From Candidatus Staskawiczbacteria bacterium (GTDB lineage Bacteria; Patescibacteriota; Minisyncoccia; Minisyncoccales; Staskawiczbacteraceae), in assembly GCA_041661545.1 (NCBI GenBank), contig JBAZUH010000001.1, positions 275,877 through 339,876 of the forward strand: a DNA stretch of 64,000 nucleotides, written 5' to 3'. Shown one piece after another: positions 298 to 64,000 of this stretch. The translations under genes were made by a program, and so were the position numbers. Below the pieces are notes generated by a model. It was not told the DNA's origin. It made no database searches and saw only the letters and a program-made list of their open reading frames with translations. Within the stretch, counting starts at the first letter, position 1; each line of letters opens with the position of its first letter.

Positions 298-1173
298 TTA
301 TTTCGGAATTGCCGAGTTAATTTGGTCACGGAGGGTTCGAGCTGCGAAAGCAGAATCTTCGGCAAAAATAATTCCCGATGAAGAATTCATGGCCATTGAA
401 CCATAACCGGCCCAAGCAGCGCGCACTGTTTCTCCAACAAATCCGCCCTGTGTGCCAATACCCGGAATCAAAAACCACAATTTATTACCAACAAGTTCGC
501 GTGCACGAACTAAATGCTTCGCATAAATATCGCCCGTGCCCTTACGTTTCTCGTAAGCTGCAGCCATTACCAGGCCAGCGCTTGAGCCAACCTTTAGAAT
601 AGCTGCCCAATTCAAAATACAATCGGCATAATGTTCCCAGCTGGGCCGGCCATTTACCATTAAGATGTCTTGAACTTGCCGAGCCTTTGGATTGCTGGTA
701 TAGCACAAACCAACCAACCCCTTGCTGTCGGGATTATCTACATCAACCAAGGCTTCCATTGTATCCATACCCATATAAGGCGAAAAGGTAATGCCGTCGG
801 CATTTTGACCCCTAGCACTCAAATGAGCTTGACGATACATCTCTTGCGTACGAGCAATGTCGCCACGCTTAGCGTCAAGCAAAACTGGAACTCCGGGGTG
901 CTCTTCATGGATATACCGAATCGCATCTTTAAGGCTCTCTGCCCCACCCGGGAGCGCTTCCCAAAACGCCGAATTGGGCTTATACATGCACGTATATGGC
1001 TCCGTTTCTTCAACAGCACTCAACATCCAATAATAAACGCTTTCTGCATCGGTGCGGTGGCGTGCTACGAAACGCTTGGGCATTTTTTCCAAAACTGGGT
1101 CTAAGCCCACACAAACTAGGCTGTTTACAGCCTTTTGCCGTTCGGCTAGTATTTGCCTGAATCCCTTTTTCAT
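298..1173 (-). CDS. pyrF: orotidine 5'-phosphate decarboxylase, type 2
   Basis: Motifs LVCVGLDP, KPNSAFWE, LLDAKRGDIARTQ, SPYMG, TSNP and PGIGTQGG match long-form OMP decarboxylase. Visibly GC-rich compared with the backbone. Confidence 0.8.
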   Translation of the reverse strand: MKKGFRQILAERQKAVNSLVCVGLDPVLEKMPKRFVARHRTDAESVYYWMLSAVEETEPYTCMYKPNSAFWEALPGGAESLKDAIRYIHEEHPGVPVLLDAKRGDIARTQEMYRQAHLSARGQNADGITFSPYMGMDTMEALVDVDNPDSKGLVGLCYTSNPKARQVQDILMVNGRPSWEHYADCILNWAAILKVGSSAGLVMAAAYEKRKGTGDIYAKHLVRARELVGNKLWFLIPGIGTQGGFVGETVRAAWAGYGSMAMNSSSGIIFAEDSAFAARTLRDQINSAIPK

Positions 1174-3229: not shown

Positions 3230-3991
3230 TTAAAATACTCTATGACTGCAACTACAAACGTAACAGTCTAATGCGCATTCGCAACACCTGTAACAAAGAA
3301 ATGGCCTGCACTGACATTTATCTTTTTGCTTCATTTCTCTGCTACATTTTTTACATTTTAATATAATGCTTGGTTGTACAAATTTTTTGGGCGCTTCTTG
3401 GTATGATTCGGGTAATATGGTGCTTTTATACATTGTTCCATGACCAGGAATTATAAAATCTGCTATTTTTAAAATCATATCTCTGCTTTCTTTTAATTTT
3501 ACTGGGTTAGACGCATATGCATCGTCATGCGGATCTTTAGGAAAGTCTTCTTTCCAAAACACATCTCCGCATATTGCCACTTTTCCCTGTTCTGTATTAA
3601 CTAAAAGAGTAATACCTGTATAATCGTGCCCAGGAGTACGTAAAATTTTTATATTATCTGTAAAATTTTCCGACCAATCTTCTGAAGTATTTTTATTCCA
3701 CAAAGCAAAATATTCTAAAGTTTTAGCATCAGGAAACATGCCTATGTTTCTATAATGGTCAATATGTGAATGTGTTATACAAACAACATTAACATCTTTT
3801 ACTGACAAATTTTCTTTATTTAGAGCGTCTATTAGCAATTGTTGACTTTCTAAAACTCCTGGGTCAACCACCATTACAATATCTCCATCACGCACCAATG
3901 TAATGGTTGGCTGGGTTTTCTCTTCGCCAGTATCACCTTCAGAACCGGCGTTTGTGTAGCCCTCTAATAATATTTTTACTTGTGCTACCAT
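3230..3991 (-). CDS. MBL-fold metallo-hydrolase with Cys-rich C-terminal tail
   Basis: THSHIDHYRN (HxHxDH) plus downstream PGHD and PGHG. The last ~42 aa contain 13 Cys (CKKCSREMKQKDKCQCRPFLCYRCCECALDCYVCSCSH). Confidence 0.8.
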   Translation of the reverse strand: MVAQVKILLEGYTNAGSEGDTGEEKTQPTITLVRDGDIVMVVDPGVLESQQLLIDALNKENLSVKDVNVVCITHSHIDHYRNIGMFPDAKTLEYFALWNKNTSEDWSENFTDNIKILRTPGHDYTGITLLVNTEQGKVAICGDVFWKEDFPKDPHDDAYASNPVKLKESRDMILKIADFIIPGHGTMYKSTILPESYQEAPKKFVQPSIILKCKKCSREMKQKDKCQCRPFLCYRCCECALDCYVCSCSHRVF

Positions 3992-4685: not shown

Positions 4686-5095
4686 ATAAAAAAAGAGGGC
4701 TACACGAGTGTGTAGCCATGGCGAACGGGTTTAGGTGATGAGGAAGAGGTCTGAAAGACGGTAAGTGGATTGTAAATGATCTAAAAGATCCGGACGGCAG
4801 CAGGCAGAGCAGGGCGCGCTGAACAAATTTACGCGGTGAGTCCAGCGAACCCTTGGCGCTCAAGCCTGCCACCGTCCATTGGGAATAGTCAAAGCCATAT
4901 ACGGAGGACGATCCCCCCAGACAAGCCCCCGAGAGCCATTGACTTTTCCGAAATCGTTCAGGTCGGATGACGAATTATGAACAAAGCATACAGCCCTGAC
5001 AGAGGCGAAGCACCACCGAACGCAGTGCCACTTGTGCTCATATCTCGCTAACCGGCCTGAAAACTATTTACTATTCAAATAAACAATTTTCAGAA
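4686..5095 (-). ncRNA. rnpB: ~400-nt GC-rich structured RNA; best guess RNase P RNA (identity uncertain)
   Basis: About 50% GC in an AT-rich context. It contains a 13-bp helix (GACGGUGGCAGGC/GCCUGCUGCCGUC) enclosing nested helices, and UUCG-type hairpins. It ends in the intrinsic terminator GGCUACAC-ACUC-GUGUAGCC plus a U-run. Loose resemblance to RNase P: GAGCACAAGUGG...UAGAUCAUUUACAAUCCACUUAC with AAGUGG/CCACUU (P4-like) pairing, and AGGCUUGAGCG. Other conserved RNase P blocks were not recognised. Confidence 0.45.
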
Positions 5096-5140: not shown

Positions 5141-6553
5141 TTAGGTCAACTTCTTTTCCATTTCTTGTGCAATAGCCAGTATTTTATTTTCTTCAAAATG
5201 ATTTCCTATAATTTGCAGTCCAACCGGCAAACCAGCTTCTGTTTTTCCTGCAGGCATTGATAAACCAGGCAAACCAGCTAATTTTAAAGGAATTGTATAA
5301 ATATCTGCTAAATACATTAAAAGTGGATCGTCTAACTTTTCACCCAACTTAAAAGCGGGAAATGGTGACACTGGGCAAAATAACAAATCAACTTTTTCAA
5401 ATGCTTTTGAAAAATCTTGACGAACCAACTGTCTAACCTCCTGTGCTTTTTTATAGTAAGCATCATAATATCCTGAAGATAAGCTATAGGTTCCCAACAT
5501 AATTCTTCTTTTTATTTCTGTACCAAATCCATGTCCTTTACTTTTTAGGTAAACATCCAATAAATCTCTTCCCTTCTCTGATAATCCATATTTTATTCCA
5601 TCAAGGCGCGCTAAATTTGCTGAAATTTCTGATGGACCAATAATATAATAACAGGCCAATGCATACTCTGTGCTAGGCAAGCTAATTTCTATAATTTTCG
5701 CGCCAGCACTTTCGGCTTTTTTAATTGCATTTCTAATTATCTTTTCAACTTCGGGCTCTAATCCTTTAGCAAAATATTCTTTTGGCACACCAATTTTTAA
5801 TCCTTCTAAATTTATTTTTAATTCCTCAAATTTATAATCAACTGATGTTGCATCCATTTTATCTTTTCCAGAAATAGCTTCAAAAACAATTTTACAATCT
5901 TCAACATTTTTTGCTATAGGACCTATTTGATCTAAAGATGAAGCATGTGCAACTAAACCATATCTTGATACAGCGCCATATGTTGGAGAAAATCCAACAA
6001 TACCACAAAAAGAAGCGGGCTGTCGTATCGACCCGCCAGTGTCAGAACCCAATGCATAAATTGATTCACCTGCGGTGACAGCTGCTACCGACCCGGAAGA
6101 TGTTCCACCAGGAACCCGTGTTTTATCGTGTGGATTTTTTGTAGCGCCGAATACTGATGTTTCTCCTGATGCACCCATAGCACTATCGTCTAAATTTGCT
6201 TTTCCTAGAAATACAGCTCCTTCTGCTTTTAACCTTGCTATAACTGTAGCATCATATGGTGCCACATAATTTTCTAAAATTTTTGAAGCAGCTGTGCATT
6301 TTATATCTTTAATTAAAATATTATCTTTTATAGCACATGGAATACCACAAAGCATGCCAAAATCACCTGTCTTAATTTTTTTATCTGCCTCTTCTGCCTG
6401 CTGTAACGCCAATTCTTCTGCAACAGTTATAAAAGTATTTAAATCACTCTTTTTTATTTTTTCTAAATAAGCTTTCGTTAAATCAACCGAAGTAAAATCT
6501 CCATTTTTAAGACCTTGGTGGGCTTGTTTAATTGTTAAATTAGTCAAATTCAT
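5141..6553 (-). CDS. gatA: Asp/Glu-tRNA amidotransferase subunit A
   Basis: Amidase signature GGTSSGSVAAV...GSDTGGSIRQPA. Directly downstream of gatC. Confidence 0.95.
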   Translation of the reverse strand: MNLTNLTIKQAHQGLKNGDFTSVDLTKAYLEKIKKSDLNTFITVAEELALQQAEEADKKIKTGDFGMLCGIPCAIKDNILIKDIKCTAASKILENYVAPYDATVIARLKAEGAVFLGKANLDDSAMGASGETSVFGATKNPHDKTRVPGGTSSGSVAAVTAGESIYALGSDTGGSIRQPASFCGIVGFSPTYGAVSRYGLVAHASSLDQIGPIAKNVEDCKIVFEAISGKDKMDATSVDYKFEELKINLEGLKIGVPKEYFAKGLEPEVEKIIRNAIKKAESAGAKIIEISLPSTEYALACYYIIGPSEISANLARLDGIKYGLSEKGRDLLDVYLKSKGHGFGTEIKRRIMLGTYSLSSGYYDAYYKKAQEVRQLVRQDFSKAFEKVDLLFCPVSPFPAFKLGEKLDDPLLMYLADIYTIPLKLAGLPGLSMPAGKTEAGLPVGLQIIGNHFEENKILAIAQEMEKKLT

Positions 6554-6584
6554 TGAAAATTAAAAATTTAAAATTGAAAATTAG

Positions 6585-6884
6585 TTAAAGCACGGCTTTA
6601 ACTTTTATATACCCATCTTTTTTATCTGGAAAACCTGCCATCAACCTGTCTACTGTTCCCGCATTTCTTGGCAAAACCTCATCTGTCCTGGTCGCATTTA
6701 AATTTGCTATTCCATTATTCCGTGGAATATTGGAATAGTTAGCTTTGGGTTTTGGGGCGGATTTTAATAAATCAAAATAATCTAAAATTTCTGACAGGTC
6801 TTTCTGCATTTTTTCTGTTTCCTGTTCTGTTAATTCTAACCTAGCTAATTTAGCAATTTTTTCTACCTCTTTTTTAGATATCAT
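6585..6884 (-). CDS. gatC: Asp/Glu-tRNA amidotransferase subunit C
   Basis: MISKKEVEKIAKLARLELTEQE...ILDYFDLL pattern, 99 aa, upstream of gatA. Confidence 0.9.
   Translation of the reverse strand: MISKKEVEKIAKLARLELTEQETEKMQKDLSEILDYFDLLKSAPKPKANYSNIPRNNGIANLNATRTDEVLPRNAGTVDRLMAGFPDKKDGYIKVKAVL
6707..6742. repeat. family-2 palindromic element copy inside gatC coding sequence
   Basis: CTATTCCATTATTCCGTGGAATATTGGAATAGTTAG differs at 2 positions from the intergenic 39-mers at 10450 and 10789. It is read in frame as NYSNIPRNNGI. Confidence 0.8.
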
Positions 6885-6921
6885 TAGATTATAATAGCAA
6901 AAATTTATAATGATGCAAATC

Positions 6922-6950
6922 TTGACACCGCCAGCAATTATGTTAGTATT
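6922..6950 (+). promoter_or_regulatory. putative sigma70-type promoter of the Cys-rich mini-gene islet
   Basis: TTGACA at 6922-6927 followed 16 nt later by TAGTAT (or TATTAT at 19 nt). Confidence 0.4.
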
Positions 6951-6995
6951 ATTCTACTGAAGGTCTTGAACCTTTCCAACTCAACCCCGACTAAC

Positions 6996-7286
6996 ATGAA
7001 AGCATCTTTGTTAAAATTATTCCGCGCGCTACTCCAAGCGCTGCATGGTTTCTTTTGTGGACATACTTTTGCAATATCTTCAAATACATGCAACACTTGT
7101 GGCGTAGAATTATGCGGAAAAAGGCTCATTGAAGGTTTCTCTTTCGCCTGTAATTTACCAAAGGGCCATAAAGGGCAATGCGAAAATACTTTTGGGCAAG
7201 ATGCAATTTCAAGCTATCTCAGGGTTAATGGCGGAGGCCCTAAAATCAACGACAGTCGCGTCACCCATGAAACCACAAACTCATAG
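6996..7286 (+). CDS. small Cys/His-rich protein A (zinc-ribbon-like), GC-rich islet
   Basis: The ORF is open from 6966 (TTG), with the first ATG at 6996. Motif: CGHTFAISSNTCNTCGVELCGKRLIEGFSFACNLPKGHKGQCEN. The start codon is uncertain. Confidence 0.5.
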   Translation: MKASLLKLFRALLQALHGFFCGHTFAISSNTCNTCGVELCGKRLIEGFSFACNLPKGHKGQCENTFGQDAISSYLRVNGGGPKINDSRVTHETTNS

Positions 7287-7497
7287 ACACGCGCGACTTG
7301 GAAATCTTGCACATTGTGAAAGCTGTGGCGCTCCAATGTGCCTATCCCAACATCCATATCTGCTAGTGTGCTGCACGCGAGTAAGAGGACACTCAGGACA
7401 GTGCAACAACCCAAACTTTCTCAGCTTCACGAGCTGGGATCGACCAAGCGAGCAACACCCGAACCTCCCCACGCGTCTTGAACATCCAGCCTTTTAA
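7267..7497 (+). CDS. small Cys/His-rich protein B, paralog of protein A
   Basis: Motif HCESCGAPMCLSQHPYLLVCCTRVRGHSGQCNN repeats the C-x2-C-G-x3-C...C-x5-G-H-x-G-Q-C-x-N pattern of protein A, but in the +1 frame. The ATG at 7267 overlaps the end of A. The ORF is open from 7129. Confidence 0.5.
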   Translation: MKPQTHRHARLGNLAHCESCGAPMCLSQHPYLLVCCTRVRGHSGQCNNPNFLSFTSWDRPSEQHPNLPTRLEHPAF

Positions 7498-7586
7498 CTG
7501 ATTATTCTTGATTGTTTACCGCGCATGCATCGAATTTCTATTGGAAAACGATGCTTTTTTTATACTACAATACTCTTGATATAGCC

Positions 7587-7619
7587 AAAAAAATATCTCG
7601 CGAAAACGAGATATTTTTA
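7587..7619. terminator. bidirectional intrinsic terminator
   Basis: A-run, then ATATCTCG-CGAAAA-CGAGATAT, then T-run. Lies downstream of mreB (minus) and of the plus-strand islet. Confidence 0.6.
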
Positions 7620-7654
7620 TTAAAAATTATAAATTAGAAATTGAAAATTCGTGG

Positions 7655-8716
7655 CTAGTATGGGGCGTCATTTTCGTCATCTTTAGACATTACTTCAGAC
7701 AACGTTTCAATATTTTCTAAAGCAATTCCTGCACCCCTAACAACCGAAGTTAATGGGTCGTCAATTATCTTACAAGGCATTTTTGTTTCTTTAGAAATTA
7801 AAACATCAAGGCCCCTTAGCAATGAACCTCCTCCTGCTAAATAAATTCCATTTGTCATAACATCGGCCAATAATTCTGGCGGAGTTTCTTCTATGGTTAT
7901 TTTAATAGCTGAAATAATTTGTTTTACAGATCTATCTAGAGCTCTTTGAACATCATCATTAAAAATTACAACTTCTTCAGGAAGCCCTGTAATTAAATTT
8001 CTGCCTCGCATTGGCATTTCTTTTTTTTCTTTTAAGGGAATTGCTGAACCAATATTTATTTTAATTAATTCTGCGGTTTTTTCTCCAATTAAAAGCTTAT
8101 ATTCTTTTTGCGCAAATTGAACAATATCATCATTTAATTTATCTCCAGCAATTTTTAAACTTCTAGATGCCACAATTCCGCCCAAAGATATAACAGCAAC
8201 TTCGGTTGTTCCTCCTCCAATATCAACAATAAAATTTCCTCCTGCCTCTTGAACTGGTAATTTTGCTCCTATAGCTGAGGCTAATGGCTCTTCAATTAAA
8301 AATACTGTTCTGGCTCCTGCATTTTTTGCCGCGTCTCTTACTGCCCTTCTTTCAACTTCGGTTACACCACAAGGAATACCAATAATAACTCTTGGCATGC
8401 TCACCAAGCCAAACATTTTTTTACTAGAGCTAGTTGCTTTTTCAATAAAATATTTTAACATTTGTTCTGTCACTTCAAAATCAGATATAACTCCATTAAC
8501 TAATGGCCTTGTTGCAGAAATATAAGCTGGTGTTCGGCCAACCATCTTTTTGGCCTCTTCTCCAATAGCTAAAATTTGACCTGTTTTATTATTTACAGCC
8601 ACTACAGAGGGCTCATTAATAATGATGCCCCTGTCTTTTACATAAACCAAAGAATTGGCTGTACCCAAGTCAATTGCCATATCAATCGATAAAAATGAAA
8701 ATAATCTTTTAAGCAT
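7655..8716 (-). CDS. mreB: rod shape-determining protein MreB (paralog 1)
   Basis: MAIDLGTANSLVYV, DIGGGTTEVAVISLGG and LAGGGSLLRGL actin-fold motifs. Confidence 0.9.
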   Translation of the reverse strand: MLKRLFSFLSIDMAIDLGTANSLVYVKDRGIIINEPSVVAVNNKTGQILAIGEEAKKMVGRTPAYISATRPLVNGVISDFEVTEQMLKYFIEKATSSSKKMFGLVSMPRVIIGIPCGVTEVERRAVRDAAKNAGARTVFLIEEPLASAIGAKLPVQEAGGNFIVDIGGGTTEVAVISLGGIVASRSLKIAGDKLNDDIVQFAQKEYKLLIGEKTAELIKINIGSAIPLKEKKEMPMRGRNLITGLPEEVVIFNDDVQRALDRSVKQIISAIKITIEETPPELLADVMTNGIYLAGGGSLLRGLDVLISKETKMPCKIIDDPLTSVVRGAGIALENIETLSEVMSKDDENDAPY

Positions 8717-12014: not shown

Positions 12015-12043
12015 TTGACAATACTTATTTAATATGCTATGAT
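12015..12043 (+). promoter_or_regulatory. strong sigma70-type promoter with extended -10
   Basis: TTGACA (12015-12020), 17-nt spacer, TATGAT (12038-12043) preceded by TGc. Confidence 0.6.
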
Positions 12044-12114
12044 TAATGTATAGCGTTAATCACGCTTTTAGCACCCCCGCCGTGAGGACTCACGGCACAA
12101 CCCCAACCACCACC

Positions 12115-12300
12115 ATGAAACTGTTTATTGCCTTCCAGACATCCGCACTTCTTTGTGCGGTCAGCTCAGCCGTTCTTCTCTCCGGCTACATCCCCGATAC
12201 CACCAACAGCTTCAGGCTGTTTTACGGGATCTTAGCGGGATTTTTTGCCCTTAAGATGGAGGGCCACGCGATCGCGGAAAAAATCATCCACAAGTTGTAG
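12115..12300 (+). CDS. putative 61-aa hydrophobic peptide (alternatively part of a non-coding structured RNA)
   Basis: ATG at 12115 gives MKLFIAFQTSALLCAVSSAVLLSGYIPDTTNSFRLFYGILAGFFALKMEGH.... No RBS (C-rich leader). The region is packed with perfect hairpins, so coding status is uncertain. Confidence 0.35.
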   Translation: MKLFIAFQTSALLCAVSSAVLLSGYIPDTTNSFRLFYGILAGFFALKMEGHAIAEKIIHKL

Positions 12301-12367
12301 CACCCCGTGCTACAACCTATGCCCTGCTCTCGCAACTTCGGTTGCGATTGCGGGGCTCTTTTTTTAT
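12293..12367 (+). terminator. double-hairpin intrinsic terminator
   Basis: GTTGTAGCAC-CCC-GTGCTACAAC, then GCCC..TCGCAAC-TTCG-GTTGCGA..GGGC, followed by a T-run. Confidence 0.75.
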
Positions 12368-16374: not shown

Positions 16375-16584
16375 CTAAACCTTGGAAGGGTGACCGACAA
16401 AAGCAATCCTTCCATTCTTCTGAAGATAAACTCTGTCCCCTCTAAAATTAGAAGTCAAACTACCATCGTGCCGGCTGTGCAGTCGCCCGCAATCTTTACA
16501 TGCAAGTGTAATCGTGTGACCGCAATTACGAGGCAACACTGTTATTTTATCAGATAGATCACCGCCGCATTCTTGGCATTTCAT
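16375..16584 (-). CDS. small zinc-ribbon protein, GC-rich islet
   Basis: MKCQECGGDL...NCGHTITLACKDCGRLH has two CxxC pairs. Visibly GC-rich. A possible TTGACA -35 lies on the minus strand at 16658-16653. Confidence 0.55.
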   Translation of the reverse strand: MKCQECGGDLSDKITVLPRNCGHTITLACKDCGRLHSRHDGSLTSNFRGDRVYLQKNGRIAFVGHPSKV

Positions 16585-17959: not shown

Positions 17960-19102
17960 TTATCTGACTCCCAACGTTTTGCCAAGATATCCCAAGCCTT
18001 TTGGCTTAATAACAACTTGCTTCATTTCACTTCGTTCCACATGACCAGCACAATACGTGCGATAACGACGAGCTCCTTGGTTAATCGTGTCAAAAACTTT
18101 ATCGATGTCTCTTTCAGGAACGTATATTGCGAAACCAGCACCCATATTAAGGTTGCCGTACGATTCATAATCGTCAACCGGTCCATGCTCTTGAATAAAA
18201 TCGAAAATTGGAAGTTGTGTCGGTAGTTCATCAATCACATAAGCAAACGGCTGAGTTGCCCGCATAAGCTTACGCCAACCATGACCAGTAATATTCACCG
18301 CATAATGAATGTCCACGCCACTTCTAAGGCAATCTGCGACAAGATCAACATAAATGTGGGTCGGCTCGAGCAATGCTTCGCCATAAGTCTGACCGTCGGA
18401 AAGCTTTGTCATATATCCTTTGTCCAACTTGCCAGCAATCTCTCTGGCCAAAGTTAAACCATTAGCATGAATACCAGAACTCTCTGCGATAATAATTAGA
18501 TCACCATGCTGAATGTTAATCGGATCGATCAATTTATCCCTAGGAGCGAAACCGACAGTTGCTCCTGCAAGGTCTGCCGTACCAGGAACAACAATGCCCT
18601 TGAGCGTTGGCGTCTCTCCTCCACCCCATGTGCATCTCGCCAACATACACGCTCGTTTTGTTCCTTCAATCAATTCTCGACAACGCGCTTCGTTACTAAA
18701 CCAATCCGACTCTCCCACGGCAAGATATTGACCGTAAATGAAGGGAAGTGTTCCCAGGGTGATTATATCATTGAAAGCCATAGCTGCATTGCATTGAGCC
18801 ACATGCTCGTAAAAAGTTCTGCCGGTAAGTGTTTCAATTTGGACAGCCAATTGAATGAGTTCTTCACGGAATGCGTCGGCCACTAAGTTTTTCGTCCCGA
18901 GACCCTCAACAACAAAACCAATATACCCCCACGGCGTTTCAATCAAATAACAACTCTCCCCACGACTCCACTCCACTTCGCTAAATCCAAATTCATCAAG
19001 GTTTGCTGTAGTTTTTCGGCCAGCGAGCTGTGCCATGCGCTTAAATGGGTCCATCAAATCATAATCTACGCCAGTTCCGGCGTAAGTGATATTGTTTTCC
19101 AT
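17960..19102 (-). CDS. AIR synthase (PurM)-related protein, GC-rich islet
   Basis: YAGTGVDYDLMDPFKR...VEGLGTKNLVA...GGGETP...SSGIHANGLTLAR...NITGHGW follows PurM-superfamily order. AAGGAG RBS 8 nt upstream. Flanked by terminators on both sides. Confidence 0.7.
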   Translation of the reverse strand: MENNITYAGTGVDYDLMDPFKRMAQLAGRKTTANLDEFGFSEVEWSRGESCYLIETPWGYIGFVVEGLGTKNLVADAFREELIQLAVQIETLTGRTFYEHVAQCNAAMAFNDIITLGTLPFIYGQYLAVGESDWFSNEARCRELIEGTKRACMLARCTWGGGETPTLKGIVVPGTADLAGATVGFAPRDKLIDPINIQHGDLIIIAESSGIHANGLTLAREIAGKLDKGYMTKLSDGQTYGEALLEPTHIYVDLVADCLRSGVDIHYAVNITGHGWRKLMRATQPFAYVIDELPTQLPIFDFIQEHGPVDDYESYGNLNMGAGFAIYVPERDIDKVFDTINQGARRYRTYCAGHVERSEMKQVVIKPKGLGYLGKTLGVR

Positions 19103-40998: not shown

Positions 40999-41219
40999 TT
41001 TTACTTTTTGTCTGACGCCATAGACCTGGCGACAGATATTATTAATTTATTATTTTTTTATTTATTAATTTTTTTTAACGTATTATTATATTATTATATT
41101 ATTTTATATAAGTCAATAGTTTCTATGACAAATTACAAAACATTGACTTTATTAACATTTCAATTATACTTTATTATCAGCTATTTGACAATATACACCC
41201 ACAAAAAAGAGATAATGTC

Positions 41220-41540
41220 GTGAACAAACAAAACTTGCCCGTTACAAATCTTCGCTGCTTAAGAGACCCACATTTCTTGAAACATCCATGGCATGCGGGC
41301 CATTGTTCGTATGTTGGTTCGATAGATCCAAGAAGGGCTCACGAGCTACGCATGCGGAATAAACGCGCTGGCGGAATGGCCTTCGCAATGGTCGAAAGGC
41401 TTGAAAAATCAACCTGGGGTCCAGGGATCAAAATTAACGCCTCGCAAAGAAATTTTATAATTCGGGAAATCAAAGCGCTCGTGATGAGCACTTTTCCGCC
41501 AATGCCACCAACTAATCTCGAAGAAAGGAACACAAAATGA
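41220..41540 (+). CDS. islet ORF1, basic small protein (GTG start)
   Basis: 106-aa ORF in the ~50% GC cassette. Its stop overlaps the ORF2 start (ATGA). The tail is ...STFPPMPPTNLEE. ACACCCACAAA lies 25 nt upstream. Confidence 0.45.
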   Translation: MNKQNLPVTNLRCLRDPHFLKHPWHAGHCSYVGSIDPRRAHELRMRNKRAGGMAFAMVERLEKSTWGPGIKINASQRNFIIREIKALVMSTFPPMPPTNLEERNTK

Positions 41541-41869
41541 GAGACCGACTTATTGCTATCGCACGGAAGGCAGTTGGAAATACACGATTTATAGTAATTT
41601 CGCAAAAGGGTGATTACCTACGCGTCACACTAGATGGGTTTGATGTTGGAACTTTTATAAAACGTGGAGGCGGCGGCTATAGCTCAGATAACATGTTACT
41701 AGCCGAATCCATTCTCGGCTTAGAGCACCCACCCGAACCCGCACCCGCACCAGCACCAGCCGAATCAATCGAATTCGACGACGTTAGCGTCGAAGTGGGA
41801 GAAGGACTATTTGATGGAATCCCAGAGTGGGGTGAAGGCGAAGACGAGGACGCCGACGAAATTCCGTGA
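41537..41869 (+). CDS. islet ORF2, small protein with Pro-rich linker and acidic tail
   Basis: Preceded by GAAAGGAACACAAAATG. ...LGLEHPPEPAPAPAPAESIEFDDVSVEVGEG...EGEDEDADEIP. Confidence 0.55.
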   Translation: MRDRLIAIARKAVGNTRFIVISQKGDYLRVTLDGFDVGTFIKRGGGGYSSDNMLLAESILGLEHPPEPAPAPAPAESIEFDDVSVEVGEGLFDGIPEWGEGEDEDADEIP

Positions 41870-41908
41870 AATTTCAAACACCCACAAATTAGCGAAAAGA
41901 AAATCAAA

Positions 41909-42109
41909 ATGGCGGAAGAAAAAGTAACTGTTAAAATTAGACGAAGGAACAGAATCGCCGGAATTTCTGTTGCCAACGACATGATTAAATCCGGGTGGAC
42001 AGTTTCAGGGTTCGAACTTGTCGTTCCTCAAGGAACCAACATATACTTTGAACGGGAAATTCCCGACCCCCCAACAAGCTTCCCAGACTGCAATCAGAGG
42101 GGCCGGTAG
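41909..42109 (+). CDS. islet ORF3, small DUF4177-like module protein
   Basis: ...MIKSGWTVSGFELVVPQGTNIYFEREIPDPPTSFP. Module shared with ORF4 and ORF5. ACACCCACAAA lies 31 nt upstream. Confidence 0.55.
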   Translation: MAEEKVTVKIRRRNRIAGISVANDMIKSGWTVSGFELVVPQGTNIYFEREIPDPPTSFPDCNQRGR

Positions 42110-42147
42110 TATAATTACCAAACCAACGATCTGAAAGGAATACGGAA

Positions 42148-42360
42148 ATGAAATACGATCCAATATTGCTTAGCAGCGATGATATGAATAGATTCAGAAC
42201 AGATCTAATAAATATGGGAGAGGAAGGTTATCACACGATAGGCTTCCACGCAATCTCTAACTCTAGCGGAGTCACGTTGTATGCCCTAATGGAAAAGGAA
42301 CTTCCCAGCGACCCTCCTAACAACCTTCCCAAGCCACACCCCGAAGAACCCGTGGTATAA
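42148..42360 (+). CDS. islet ORF4, small DUF4177-like module protein
   Basis: Preceded by GAAAGGAATACGGAAATG. ...INMGEEGYHTIGFHAISNSSGVTLYALMEKELPSDPPNNLP. Confidence 0.55.
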   Translation: MKYDPILLSSDDMNRFRTDLINMGEEGYHTIGFHAISNSSGVTLYALMEKELPSDPPNNLPKPHPEEPVV

Positions 42361-42403
42361 CAATTAACTACTAATCCAGTAGAAAGCCGAAAGGAACACG
42401 AAA

Positions 42404-42868
42404 ATGAAAAAGTGGGAATATACAATTTTCTTTTTCCCTAAAGAAAAGATAGAATCAATACAAGGCCTCAGCAAATTTGGAAAAGAAGGCTGGCGAGTGA
42501 TACACGTAAGTGAAAACATGTTCGCCGCTTTACTCGAGCGGGAAATTCCCGAAACGGAAGAACCCGCGCCAAAAGCTCGCAAGAAGCTAACCGAACTTCC
42601 TGCCGAACAACTAGCGCCGGCGCCAGATTCTCCGGGCCAATGCAAATTGAATATGGATGAACAACCCCATCTAGATTGGTCCGCATCCAAACCAGCGCCG
42701 GCCGAATCAGTCGGCTTAGACGTCGCTGGCCACGACGAACATGGTTGCACATACGGACCAGTGGCCAAAACCACACCGCAAGCGCCGGCTTCTCCGGATA
42801 AAACCGGCGCGTATCCAGCATTTCCAAGCTGGGAAGAAGACGACGACAATCTTCGAGAAAATCAGTGA
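42404..42868 (+). CDS. islet ORF5, DUF4177-like N-terminal module plus long disordered Pro/Ala/acidic tail
   Basis: Preceded by GAAAGGAACACGAAAATG. MKKWEYTIFFFPKEKIESIQGLSKFGKEGWRVIHVSENMFAALLEREIPETEEP. The tail contains KPAPAESVGLDV, as in ORF2. Confidence 0.6.
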   Translation: MKKWEYTIFFFPKEKIESIQGLSKFGKEGWRVIHVSENMFAALLEREIPETEEPAPKARKKLTELPAEQLAPAPDSPGQCKLNMDEQPHLDWSASKPAPAESVGLDVAGHDEHGCTYGPVAKTTPQAPASPDKTGAYPAFPSWEEDDDNLRENQ

Positions 42869-42875
42869 ACCCTAT

Positions 42876-42901
42876 GCTCCAAAATTTGGAGCTCTTTTTT
42901 T
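42876..42901 (+). terminator. intrinsic terminator of the plus-strand cassette
   Basis: GCTCCAAA-A-TTTGGAGC followed by TCTTTTTTT, 8 nt after the ORF5 stop. Confidence 0.75.
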
Positions 42902-62020: not shown

Positions 62021-64000
62021 TTAACCAACTATACGTCTACGTCTTAAAATAAATACCGTAAATCCAGAAGAAAGCGCAACAACCGATGTAACAATAATCC
62101 ACGTTATTGCTGTTTTCTTATTTTTTTCAGAGCTATCTGCTGAATTTTGCTCTTGTTTTTCAGGTACAATTATGTTAGATGCTTCTGTTGGAGTGGCTGA
62201 TACTTCATTTGATGCTGATGTTGATGCAGTTGGTAAATTTGCCTGTGGCACAGTTGTTTCTGGTGTTGTATCTAAAATTACTACTGGTTCAATTTCTGTA
62301 TCTATTGGCGTTGTTGGAACAACAGGGGGCACTCGCACGTAACCACCACCAAGAGGAGCTGGCGTATCATCAGCCGAAGTGGCCGAGGTAGAGCTAATTG
62401 GTCCTTGCCCAACAGAATTTACTGCTTTTACTCTAAAATCATAGCTTAAATTATTAGTAAGGCCAGTAACTATTGCACTAGTTACAGTAGAAATTGGGTC
62501 AGCAAATATGCTCCAGCTAGAATCTGAACTTAATTTATATTCAATAACATAGTCTGTAATTGCACTACCTCCGTCTGAAGTAGGGGCGCTCCAAAATAAA
62601 CCCACCTGCATATTTCCAGCTGATGCTGAAAGTGAATTTATAATACCTGGCACAGTCATTGGTATTACAGCATCTGATGGTGGCGATGAAGACAACCCTG
62701 TGCCAATAATATTTGTGGCCGTCATTGTAAATGTATAAGATGTGCCATTTGTTAAACCAGTTATAATAATTGGCGTAGTAAGACCTGTTTCTGTTAAACC
62801 TCCGGGGTTTGAAGTAACAGTATAATTTGTAATTTCGCTTCCACCGTTTGAAGCAGGGGCAGTAAAAGAAACCGTTGCTTGCTCATTTCCAGCTACAGCA
62901 GAAACCCCTGTTGGCGGATCTGGAAAAGTTGCAACAGCTGTGAAAGATGAAAAAGCAGAAGATGAAGTTGAGCCATACAAAACTCTTATATGAAAATAAT
63001 AATCTCCGGGAGTTGATACAGTTGAAATAGCTGTAAAATCATAATCATCACCCGAATCAATAAGTTTTGCATTTGAAGCACTAAAAACATCATCGCCTCC
63101 GCCACATAAATTGTCTACTGCATCAGTAACGCACAAGGTGTATTGATATTCATATTCAATTACACCTTCGTTTGTAATTCTTATATCTGTGCTAATGCTT
63201 GTATTAGTTAAATCTGAAAAACCCATAATTAACACCTGAGCTGGCTCACCAGGAGTAGCACTAACCACGCTACTTGCTCCACTTGTACCAATAATATTTT
63301 TAGCACTTACTCTAAAATCATAAGACGTGCCGTTAGATAATCCAGTTACTGTAGCAAATTTATCAATGCTTACTCCATCGTCAAAAGTAGCCCAAGTTCC
63401 GCCAGTTGTTAGTTGATATTCAATTACATAATCTGTAATTGCGCTACCTCCGGTTGAAGCAGGATCTGACCATGTTAATTTAATACTGCTACTTTTTACT
63501 TCTGTGGCAACATTAAGTGGCTCGGTTGGTTCGGTTGGTAAAGTTATTTCCGCAGAAGCATCTGAAGCCAAGCCATCTCCAACATCGTTTGTTGCTACCA
63601 CAGTAAAAGTATAAGTTGCGCCATTTGTTAAACCTGTAACAGTGTGAGAAAGGTCTGTTGAGCTAGCATTTATATCTGTACCACCATTATTTGAAGAAAC
63701 TGTATATCCGGTAATTGCACTACCACCATTAGACAATGGCGCAGTAAAAGTTATTACTGCTTGCCCATTACCTGCCTCTGCGGTTACCCCTGTTGCTTTT
63801 CCTGGAACTCCCGCCGGTGTTACAGAAGAAGAGGCATCTGAATCTGGCCCATCACCAGCAACATTAGTAGCTTTTACAGTAAATGTATATTCTGTTCCAT
63901 TTGTAAGCCCACTAATAATAATTGGCGACGTGCTACCAGCTTGCGTAATTGCTTGCGGATTGGAAGTAACAGTATAATTTGTAATTTCGCTTCCGCCATT
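62021..64000 (-). CDS. large surface protein with tandem fibronectin type III-like repeats and C-terminal TM anchor (5' end beyond window)
   Basis: Repeated ...APxSNGGSxITxYxV....GG...........TGLTNGTSYTFxVxAxNxxG... units. The frame stays open upstream of the track start (a TTG at 63736) to the window edge. C-terminal TM plus RRRRIVG. Confidence 0.8.
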   Translation of the reverse strand, partial: NGGSEITNYTVTSNPQAITQAGSTSPIIISGLTNGTEYTFTVKATNVAGDGPDSDASSSVTPAGVPGKATGVTAEAGNGQAVITFTAPLSNGGSAITGYTVSSNNGGTDINASSTDLSHTVTGLTNGATYTFTVVATNDVGDGLASDASAEITLPTEPTEPLNVATEVKSSSIKLTWSDPASTGGSAITDYVIEYQLTTGGTWATFDDGVSIDKFATVTGLSNGTSYDFRVSAKNIIGTSGASSVVSATPGEPAQVLIMGFSDLTNTSISTDIRITNEGVIEYEYQYTLCVTDAVDNLCGGGDDVFSASNAKLIDSGDDYDFTAISTVSTPGDYYFHIRVLYGSTSSSAFSSFTAVATFPDPPTGVSAVAGNEQATVSFTAPASNGGSEITNYTVTSNPGGLTETGLTTPIIITGLTNGTSYTFTMTATNIIGTGLSSSPPSDAVIPMTVPGIINSLSASAGNMQVGLFWSAPTSDGGSAITDYVIEYKLSSDSSWSIFADPISTVTSAIVTGLTNNLSYDFRVKAVNSVGQGPISSTSATSADDTPAPLGGGYVRVPPVVPTTPIDTEIEPVVILDTTPETTVPQANLPTASTSASNEVSATPTEASNIIVPEKQEQNSADSSEKNKKTAITWIIVTSVVALSSGFTVFILRRRRIVG

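Follow-up and report, generated by a model that had tools for sequence, protein, structure and literature searches.

In this report, we focus on a GC-rich islet in the genome of a Candidatus Staskawiczbacteria bacterium and on the two small cysteine- and histidine-rich proteins that it encodes. The islet lies in a stretch of 64,000 nucleotides (contig JBAZUH010000001.1, positions 275,877 to 339,876 of the forward strand), which we will call the window and whose positions are used throughout. It occupies 6922-7561 of the plus strand, within the 770-nt gap between gatC (6585-6884, minus strand) and mreB (7655-8716, minus strand). It carries two overlapping open reading frames (ORFs), A and B, whose products are paralogous at the protein level in these two frames; it is absent from close relatives and foreign in composition, and our searches returned nothing resembling its products beyond a repeat of certain phage proteins. 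Morons are autonomous promoter-gene-terminator units of deviant composition that sit, in lambdoid phages, between genes which are direct neighbours in related genomes. With slightly better than even confidence, we read the islet as a cassette that was acquired laterally, resembles a moron and encodes two paralogous metal-binding mini-proteins, which form a sequence family not described before among the well-known small zinc-finger-like proteins.

Anatomy of the islet and paralogy of its two ORFs

The window is AT-rich, mostly at about 0.30-0.35 GC, and its housekeeping genes are mainly on the minus strand. Measured in 200-nt windows, the GC content of the islet reaches 0.455-0.52 at 7100-7499, compared to 0.29-0.36 in the flanks, so that the GC-rich plus-strand unit which a preliminary description of this DNA had placed between gatC and mreB is borne out. 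The TTGACA box that it had pointed to at 6922 opens the top promoter-like site of the region 6500-7800. This site, at 6922-6949 on the plus strand, consists of TTGACA (6922-6927), a 16-nt spacer and TAGTAT (6944-6949), with an upstream TG as in extended -10 promoters, and it matches the consensus at 10 of 12 positions; transcription is predicted to start around 6956. At the other end, the hairpin and T-run reported at 7527-7562 are found as an intrinsic terminator at 7527-7561 (plus strand), in which a GCATCG/CGATGC stem with an inner UUUC/GGAA stem (7527-7554) is followed by seven T (7555-7561). A free energy of -10.7 kcal/mol (z = -2.76) was computed for this interrupted 10-bp stem, a value reached by 2 of 200 shuffled sequences. 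Promoter and terminator, which are consensus and fold predictions, are both on the strand of ORFs A and B. The islet terminator is convergent with that of mreB, a perfect 12-bp hairpin (7589-7600/7607-7618) followed by a T-run on the minus strand, at 7587-7618 (minus strand), which marks the right edge of the insert.

ORF A (6996-7286, plus strand) encodes 96 amino acids from its ATG, with an alternative TTG start at 6966. Its product from the ATG at 6996 is the annotated hypothetical protein MFA6190173.1 (NCBI and JGI), the first 20 residues of which are predicted, at low confidence, to be helical. ORF B (7267-7497, plus strand, with a TAA stop at 7495-7497) encodes 76 amino acids from its ATG and is in the +1 frame relative to A. 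The B frame, taken from stop to stop, begins at 7108 and includes a TTG at 7129 besides the ATG at 7267, and the ORF map agrees with the earlier statement that both frames are open over 7129-7286. The two ORFs overlap by 20 nt at 7267-7286 (plus strand), where the end of A contains the ATG start of B (ATGAAACCACAAACTCATAG), and this overlap is the presumed site of translational coupling. The start contexts of the two ORFs are alike (CATGAAAGCA for A and CATGAAACCA for B, listed as repeat D7 by the repeat finding). Neither of them has a Shine-Dalgarno motif, which is uninformative, since 46 of the 47 long ORFs of the window lack one and have A/T-rich upstream regions.

Each ORF contains the same Cys/His core once, at 7089-7187 (plus strand) in A (CNTCGVELCGKRLIEGFSFACNLPKGHKGQCEN) and at 7315-7410 (plus strand) in B (CESCGAPMCLSQHPYLLVCCTRVRGHSGQCNN), and a six-frame translation of the window has no further copy of the motif. 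The presence of one motif in two consecutive ORFs of different frames, as first proposed, is therefore real. The distance between the two cores is 127 nt, a number not divisible by 3. The shared core of 33 residues reads C-x2-C-G-x3-C-x10/11-C-x4-G-H-x-G-Q-C-x-N; it holds five or six Cys plus His, including a C-x2-C-x4-C arrangement. All the residues of the motif generalised in the preliminary description are present in both ORFs, and it is its spacings that had to be corrected: eleven residues separate the third and fourth Cys in A and ten in B (where the second Cys of a CC pair is taken), and the following stretch is x4-G-H.

The similarity of A and B is confined entirely to this core. BLASTP compares the two proteins at E = 2e-4, and their local alignment scores 58, against 24.9 +/- 4.8 for shuffles of B (reached by 2 of 5000) and with no shuffle reaching it when both sequences are shuffled (0/5000). 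The core alone gives 58 against 22.0 +/- 4.4 (0/5000), or against 26.7 +/- 6.8 when all Cys are kept fixed (4/5000). Among the 18 frame combinations of the two motif regions, only the A-frame with the B-frame scores high (58, z = 7.2, 0/1000 shuffles), while all the others score at most 32 (z up to 3.0). Besides, different synonymous codons are used at 11 of the 21 residues that are identical in A and B, and neither MAFFT nor a repeat finder detects any DNA-level repeat between the two regions. From the synonymous differences, the frame specificity and the lack of a DNA repeat, it follows that the paralogy is held at the protein level in exactly two frames, so that the original view of A and B as protein-level paralogues with one Cys/His module each is upheld by both the shuffles and the 18-frame test. 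In a ranking of all 283 neighbouring same-strand ORF pairs of the window, A and B come third, and two of the other top-scoring pairs are located within another GC-rich islet.

In AT-rich genomes, islets of this kind often turn out to be genes for structured non-coding RNAs, and the unit could also be such a gene, on either strand, in which the ORFs are incidental. The minus strand of the whole region does fold at z = -3.45 (20 shuffles), and for two other GC-rich islets of the window the folds are exceptional (z = -6.3 and z = -5.9), from which it is clear that the fold test can detect structure in this window. The minus-strand value is not upheld in 150-nt windows (60 shuffles each), where both strands range from +1.2 to -2.8 in the core, within the background of the window (5th percentile -2.67), and only the terminators stand out in the sliding-window folds. 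The plus-strand transcript of the islet folds at z = -0.98. Rfam has no match in the window at gathering thresholds and nothing better than E = 0.8 in 6800-7700, when matches up to E = 10 are considered. Furthermore, the promoter and the terminator are on the plus strand, and the repeat exists only at the protein level. Taken with these results, an RNA gene is very improbable.

Search for relatives of the two mini-proteins

A phmmer search with A among 1.84 billion cluster representatives retrieved A itself and, as spurious matches, two repeat proteins of low complexity in which the Cys pattern is missing, and word-indexed searches of 5.8 billion clusters with B, and with a profile of A and B, found nothing else. 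The search of metagenomic sequences for the motif, which had been recommended at the outset, was run with back-translated patterns on contigs from genomes, viruses and metagenomes, including the generalised form CG-x3-C-x9..13-C-x4-GH-x-GQC, and it produced only chance matches that are out of frame. No homologue came from tblastn scans of these contigs, and tblastn against plasmids gave nothing for A or B. As for named families, PADLOC-DB has no match to either protein at E up to 1, NCBIfam has none at threshold, and sequence searches of the PDB returned only noise (FYVE, RACK1, galectin). In Pfam, B matches the recombinase zinc ribbon PF13408 (Zn_ribbon_recom) at 16.6 bits and E = 0.01, below the gathering cut-off of 25.3 bits, and A does not match it; A matches PF13248 (Zn_ribbon_3) at 12.6 bits and E = 0.099, below the gathering threshold of 27 bits. 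B also aligns with positions 367-421 of the integrase family phrog_95 at E = 0.053. Thus the GHxGQCxN signature belongs to no named family, as had been surmised, with nothing at or near threshold in Pfam, NCBIfam, PADLOC or the PDB.

Three further candidates were set aside. An Escherichia coli phage match (H9, E = 0.06) runs through a stop codon, spans two genes and is in the wrong frame, and ORF14 of Lactococcus phage BK5-T has only the generic CxxCG knuckle in common with A and B. The third is a protein of 69 amino acids encoded at 16375-16584 (minus strand), adjoining murA, which is zinc-ribbon-like (CQEC...CGH...CKDCG), has a host-like GC content and only sub-threshold Pfam matches (zf-RING_5, CPxCG_zf). 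The preliminary description had linked it to A by a CGHT-x6-C-x2-CG string. CGHT and C-x2-CG do occur in both proteins, and the spacing is seven residues in A and four in the 16375-16584 protein, with the claimed six in neither; the link does not hold, as it involves 16 residues with a 3-residue gap (E = 0.015 in a single comparison), and this protein scores at background against the profile of the phage repeat described below.

It had been foreseen that no homologue might conserve the Cys/His pattern, and this is nearly the case: the full pattern occurs nowhere else, and its C-terminal half, C...C-x5-H-x3-[C/H], is found only in one group of Gordonia phages. The matching protein of phage Fitzgerald, gp58 (QXN73719.1), has 410 amino acids, belongs to phrog_21374 and has no Pfam domain. 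Its C-terminus consists of two tandem repeats, VELCGNRPHALTGIGFVGQYACNLPAGHDGQH...YGVAW and GCTSTHALGIAVYTCTRPAGHDAFH...YGVAW, to which A aligns by BLASTP at E = 4e-7, with 17 of 31 residues identical (VELCG.R...ACNLP.GH.GQ). A search of the 5.8-billion-cluster collection with the repeat region of gp58 returned nothing, the phage proteins themselves included, which this collection evidently does not hold.

Across 15 repeat units from 11 phages, a C, a C-x5-H-x3-H and a W are invariant and a G, two residues past the first His, is nearly so. The ligand columns of A and B align with those of the phage units, as C40...C52-x5-H58-x3-C62 (with G60) in A and C25...C36-x5-H42-x3-C46 (with G44) in B; where the phages have His as the fourth ligand, A and B have Cys, a conservative ligand swap. 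The invariant phage Trp lies about 9 residues past the last ligand (G-x-x-W). B has W57, 11 residues after C46 (SWD compared to AWD), and A has Y74, 12 residues after C62, both beyond the point where the hhalign alignment stops. This alignment of the A/B core with the phage units extends over 26 columns, with a probability of 88-90% and E of about 2e-6. Its score of 28.3 was calibrated against column shuffles, which give 8.0 +/- 1.8 (maximum 14.2, 0/200), or 9.0 +/- 2.7 (maximum 21.0, 0/200) when the Cys and His columns are kept fixed, and the phage profile gives 7.7-10.7 with three further Cys-rich ORFs from the window. A conserved GYHEHVHTRLA segment is not found in A, and B has only HRHARL (4/7), which hhalign leaves unaligned (37.9% over the same 26 core columns). 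We judge it somewhat more probable than not that A and B are true homologues of the phage repeat; otherwise, the two would have converged on a similar metal site.

The nature of this site bears on another alternative, in which the mini-proteins are real and are not zinc fingers: they could be iron-sulfur proteins, thiol-disulfide redox proteins or Cys-rich precursors of natural products. The density of Cys and His, including the C-x2-C-x4-C arrangement, would suit such roles, zinc and iron-sulfur ligands being indistinguishable by sequence, and the N-terminal extension of 20-30 residues in A could be a leader. Against this, no maturase, radical-SAM enzyme, transporter or peptidase gene is found in or beside the islet, which is flanked by gatC and mreB, and PADLOC and NCBIfam have no matches. 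Moreover, the C, C, H, H set of the phage repeats is a typical structural zinc set and a poor set of iron-sulfur ligands. We thus give this alternative only a small chance.

The phage repeats are equally relevant to the question, raised in the preliminary description, of whether the locus holds two overlapping genes or a single two-repeat protein interrupted by a frameshift. Two separate genes are favoured, and the second possibility is less likely. In it, a single gene with two Cys/His repeats, like the C-termini of the Gordonia phage proteins, would have undergone a +1 frameshift between its modules, either by mutation (a pseudogene or a recent split) or by an indel of the assembly. Both frames are indeed open over the shared stretch, the distance between the cores breaks the frame, and in the sole distant relatives a single polypeptide holds two repeats. 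None of the annotation pipelines calls B, which has no A/T-rich initiation region. Besides, neither in their N-terminal parts nor in their C-terminal tails are A and B significantly similar when the alignments are compared to shuffles. Homology of these parts, once considered as an argument against a frameshift, was therefore dropped, and the unit boundaries do not prove two complete genes. On the other side, B has its own ATG, 16 codons ahead of its module, in a start context like that of A, and its frame is open for 46 extra codons, for which we estimate a chance of about 0.1 at this composition. No X XXY YYZ slippery site and no prfB-like shift site is found near 7270-7286, and an indel-prone assembly is argued against by the long genes around the islet and by gatA, mreB, proS and fusA, all of which are intact. 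A and B both carry an extra CxxCG knuckle that is missing from the phage repeats, so their duplication would post-date the split from the phage type, and a likeness of A to the first repeat and of B to the second is seen only in some phages.

The mreB-gatC junction and other features of the window

The gene order proS-mreB-gatC-gatA is kept in 80 Parcubacteria loci, and the MreB encoded in the window is 91% identical to that of a Candidatus Staskawiczbacteria metagenome-assembled genome. In most relatives, mreB and gatC are separated by only 10-60 nt (12-32 nt in the closest three, L001-L003), and neither DNA resembling the islet nor a translated match to it is present in the 80 syntenic loci or in the rest of the window. 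The GC content at third codon positions is 0.37 in A and 0.44 in B, compared to 0.18-0.27 in the flanking genes. Because of this deviation, and because relatives have no counterpart, we see the islet as an insertion of foreign composition that splits the mreB-gatCA unit. Repeat finding detected no flanking direct or inverted repeats that would suggest a transposon or an att site, no recombinase or integrase gene is located near the islet, and there are no phage genes in its flanks (gatC/gatA and mreB/proS).

As mreB and gatC are so close in the relatives that have no insert, gatC requires its own promoter here. A promoter-like site, TTTGCA-17-TATTAT with a TG, is present at 6891-6919 on the minus strand, back to back with the islet promoter, and its -10 element ends 7 nt upstream of the gatC ATG (6884). 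This suggests that the gatC mRNA is leaderless and made from a promoter at the left edge of the insert.

The junction is also occupied in other members of the clade. Among the 23 close relatives with MreB at least 79% identical and both genes in the locus, 12 carry inserts of 350-1300 nt (L004, L005, L007, L008, L011, L013, L015, L017, L018, L020, L021 and L024), all unrelated to the islet and to one another, while a single one of the more distant relatives (L051) has an insert and the rest have 10-60 nt. Many of these inserts are GC-enriched, and on the strand opposite to mreB they have an ORF of about 70-170 amino acids that could not be classified. The mreB-gatC junction is thus a variable slot specific to the clade. 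In four of these loci, the inserts share an element of about 90-150 nt directly downstream of mreB (L011 ~1290-1365, L013 ~5885-5975, L015 ~1900-1972 and L021 ~7205-7280), apparently a three-way junction. Its P1 stem is CCAGnnGCAG/CTGCnnCTGG, with compensatory changes at nn (TT/AA, GC/GC, CC/GG), P2 is AATTTTAT/ATAAAATT (with variants) and P3 is GCC/GGC, followed by GGATTGCGnATTTAT and a terminator. The element, a candidate small RNA, has no Rfam match and does not occur in the window.

The turnover at this junction also bears on the possibility that the islet is a non-functional remnant of foreign DNA, in which the ORFs are not, or never were, expressed and the likeness of A and B is a relic or partly due to chance. 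The unrelated and unclassifiable inserts of the relatives point to fast turnover, and in the GC-richer stretch many frames are open, including minus-strand ORFs of 63-91 amino acids. Several of our own results weigh in the same direction, or more generally against a cassette with metal-binding proteins. After some 283 implicit comparisons between neighbours, the similarity of A and B has only a moderate significance of about 0.02-0.1, which is reinforced by the frame-specificity test. No homologue with the full motif was found by sequence search; A forms a cluster of its own, and a collection of 15 billion proteins does not contain B under any start codon, nor does the output of any gene caller. 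GC-rich stretches precede both ATGs, unlike the A/T-rich initiation regions of the host genes. AlphaFold gives no confident model of either protein (pLDDT, its per-residue confidence, is 40.6 for A and 40.8 for B), so that the metal-site assignment depends on the sequence pattern. The phage link has its own weaknesses. In tblastn against annotated phages, the top matches of A, in 17 Gordonia phages, are weak (E = 0.8), and in hmmscan against PHROGs, A reaches phrog_21374 at E = 0.34 and B reaches nothing, so that the link is only borderline database-wide. The alignment is short and the phage family was picked after a weak database match. A alone scores 30.9 against the phage profile and B alone 13.4 (E = 0.025), with E = 0.04-0.05 for B against gp58, so that the link of B depends on A. 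Finally, phrog_21374 is found in 83 Gordonia phages and nowhere else among the searched collections, and these phages are unlikely to be the direct donor for a groundwater or lake bacterium of the Candidate Phyla Radiation (CPR).

What speaks against a remnant is that the similarity is found in one frame pairing only, with synonymous differences at conserved residues, that exactly these ORFs lie between a near-consensus promoter and a terminator, and that A independently matches the phage repeat at the same ligand columns. We therefore hold the remnant to be improbable, and the moron-like cassette is still the reading that we prefer.

Several other features of the window deserve mention. Two of them are the well-folded islets noted above. 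The first, at 4688-5075 (minus strand), between the gatA stop and tRNA-Ile(GAT), is an ORF-less unit of about 370 nt with a GC content of 0.48-0.55, with the hairpin GGCUACAC/GUGUAGCC and a subsequent U-run at its end (4717-4698). The unit has a folding energy of -149.8 kcal/mol, compared to -116.7 +/- 5.3 for shuffles (z = -6.28, 0/100), no Rfam match up to E = 10 and no counterpart in the loci of the relatives, and is a candidate large structured RNA; it contains GGAAAAGUCAAUGGCUC, which may bear a vague resemblance to the P4 strand of RNase P. The second, at 12015-12366 (plus strand), lies between an rseP-like gene and frr. It has a promoter with 11 of 12 consensus matches (TTGACA-17-TATGAT, with a TG), a terminator near 12321-12366 and a predicted transcript that folds at z = -5.86 (0/100 shuffles). 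Its hydrophobic ORF of 61 amino acids (ATG at 12115) is a singleton hypothetical protein at JGI without Pfam match, and the unit may be a gene for a small membrane protein, a toxin-like gene or an RNA.

A third unit that is autonomous and GC-rich (0.44-0.50), at 41143-42892 (plus strand), adjoins fusA and extends from a promoter-like site (41143-41170) to a terminator (42876-42892). It contains ORFs of 106, 110, 66, 70 and 154 amino acids without Pfam match, and the last three seem paralogous (neighbour-pair scores of 54-63), sharing by eye a G.(E/S)G(W/Y)...(R/K)E(I/L)P pattern. The top-scoring neighbouring pair of the window, at 63432-63611 and 63648-63974 (plus strand, near its right end), reaches a local alignment score of 89, a sign of tandem paralogues or of a split gene. 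Two genes are likely lateral acquisitions: that of OMP (orotidine monophosphate) decarboxylase at 298-1173 (minus strand; PF00215, E = 5.7e-22; GC 0.43-0.49), with a homologue in 2 of the 80 loci (L042 and, weakly, L060), and that of an AIR-synthase-related protein at 17960-19102 (minus strand; PF00586 and PF02769; GC 0.43-0.49). At 3230-3991 (minus strand), there is a putative metallo-beta-lactamase-fold protein, so assigned from its sequence, with a very Cys-rich tail (CKKCSREMKQKDKCQCRPFLCYRCCECALDCYVCSCSH).

Proposed role and comparison with known systems

If the islet is a cassette, we would expect the sigma-70 promoter at 6922-6949 to drive a transcript of about 600 nt, up to the terminator at 7527-7561, from which A and B would be made, B probably being translationally coupled to A through the start that it shares with the end of A. 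Each protein contains one module, C-x2-C-G-x3-C-x10/11-C-x5-H-x3-C, in which the C, C, H and C positions, counterparts of C, C, H and H in the phages, would bind one zinc ion as a CCHC site. The CxxC knuckle, together with an upstream [C/H]-x-H pair, may form a second metal site; this pair, followed by x8-C and common to A and B, was seen by eye, is not statistically significant and is kept as a hypothesis. Since the core has 33 residues, with no room for a catalytic domain and no other domain beside it, the most likely role would be that of a small metal-stabilised binding module for a nucleic acid or protein partner, possibly as an A/B heterodimer. The architecture, the composition and the sole detectable relative suggest that it is accessory cargo of phage or mobile-element origin, the insertion of which would have split an ancestral mreB-gatCA unit and left gatC to be read from its own, apparently leaderless promoter.

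On a broader scale, A and B might be the first stand-alone members of an undescribed module, C-x(n)-C-x5-H-x3-[H/C] with a CxxC knuckle, shared by actinophage proteins and one CPR bacterium, and this genome and those of its relatives might carry a class of integrase-less, GC-rich, moron-like cassettes that enter housekeeping operons at recurrent junctions such as mreB-gatC. We put this forward tentatively and consider it doubtful. If true, such recurrent cassettes would be an unrecognised route by which the ultra-small CPR genomes sample foreign mini-genes. If the islet itself is real, it adds an uncharacterised metal-binding mini-domain with only phage relatives, and it implies that a reduced CPR genome tolerates an autonomous foreign cassette inside a housekeeping operon, pushing gatC onto a new promoter. 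Gene B is missed by current annotation, which means that protein databases under-sample such ORFs. The islet is a singleton that opens no long-standing question alone, and its value is mainly that of an example of a class, given the several islets of this type in the window and the variable junction of the relatives.

Among known systems, stand-alone zinc-ribbon or rubredoxin-knuckle mini-proteins, such as the 16375-16584 ORF and BK5-T ORF14, are small and carry a CxxCG knuckle like A and B, but they have no C-x5-H-x3-C half, and the former does not rise above background against the phage-repeat profile. The zinc beta-ribbon of the large serine recombinases (PF13408) has a CxxCG ... C ... C spacing of the type seen here. 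However, A and B have neither a recombinase catalytic domain nor a coiled-coil, and PF13408 has no counterpart to their GHxGQC half.

The closest likeness in sequence is that of the phage repeat, with which A and B have in common the skeleton C-(G)-x8-20-[aromatic]-x-C-x4-G-H-x-G-x-[H/C]; the phage strings VELCG.R and ACNLP.GH.GQ are nearly identical to those of A. The repeats are tandem, with one or two copies per phage protein, as they are tandem in the islet, and a high-GC phage source is consistent with a GC-rich insert. The differences are that the phage repeats stand at the end of proteins of about 190-430 amino acids, after a long N-terminal region, whereas A and B stand alone with 96 and 76; that A and B add upstream the CxxCG knuckle, which the repeats do not have; that the invariant Trp would have as its counterparts only a Trp in B and a Tyr in A; and that the phages have His as the last ligand where A and B have Cys.

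In layout, the islet is best compared with the phage morons. It differs from them by its setting, a housekeeping operon of a CPR chromosome without prophage, phage genes, integrase or att-like repeats. Like them, it comes with a predicted sigma-70 promoter and intrinsic terminator of its own, a deviant GC content and small cargo ORFs, and its place is precisely between two genes that adjoin in relatives. This layout is shared by at least two other islets on the plus strand of the window (12015-12366 and 41143-42892).

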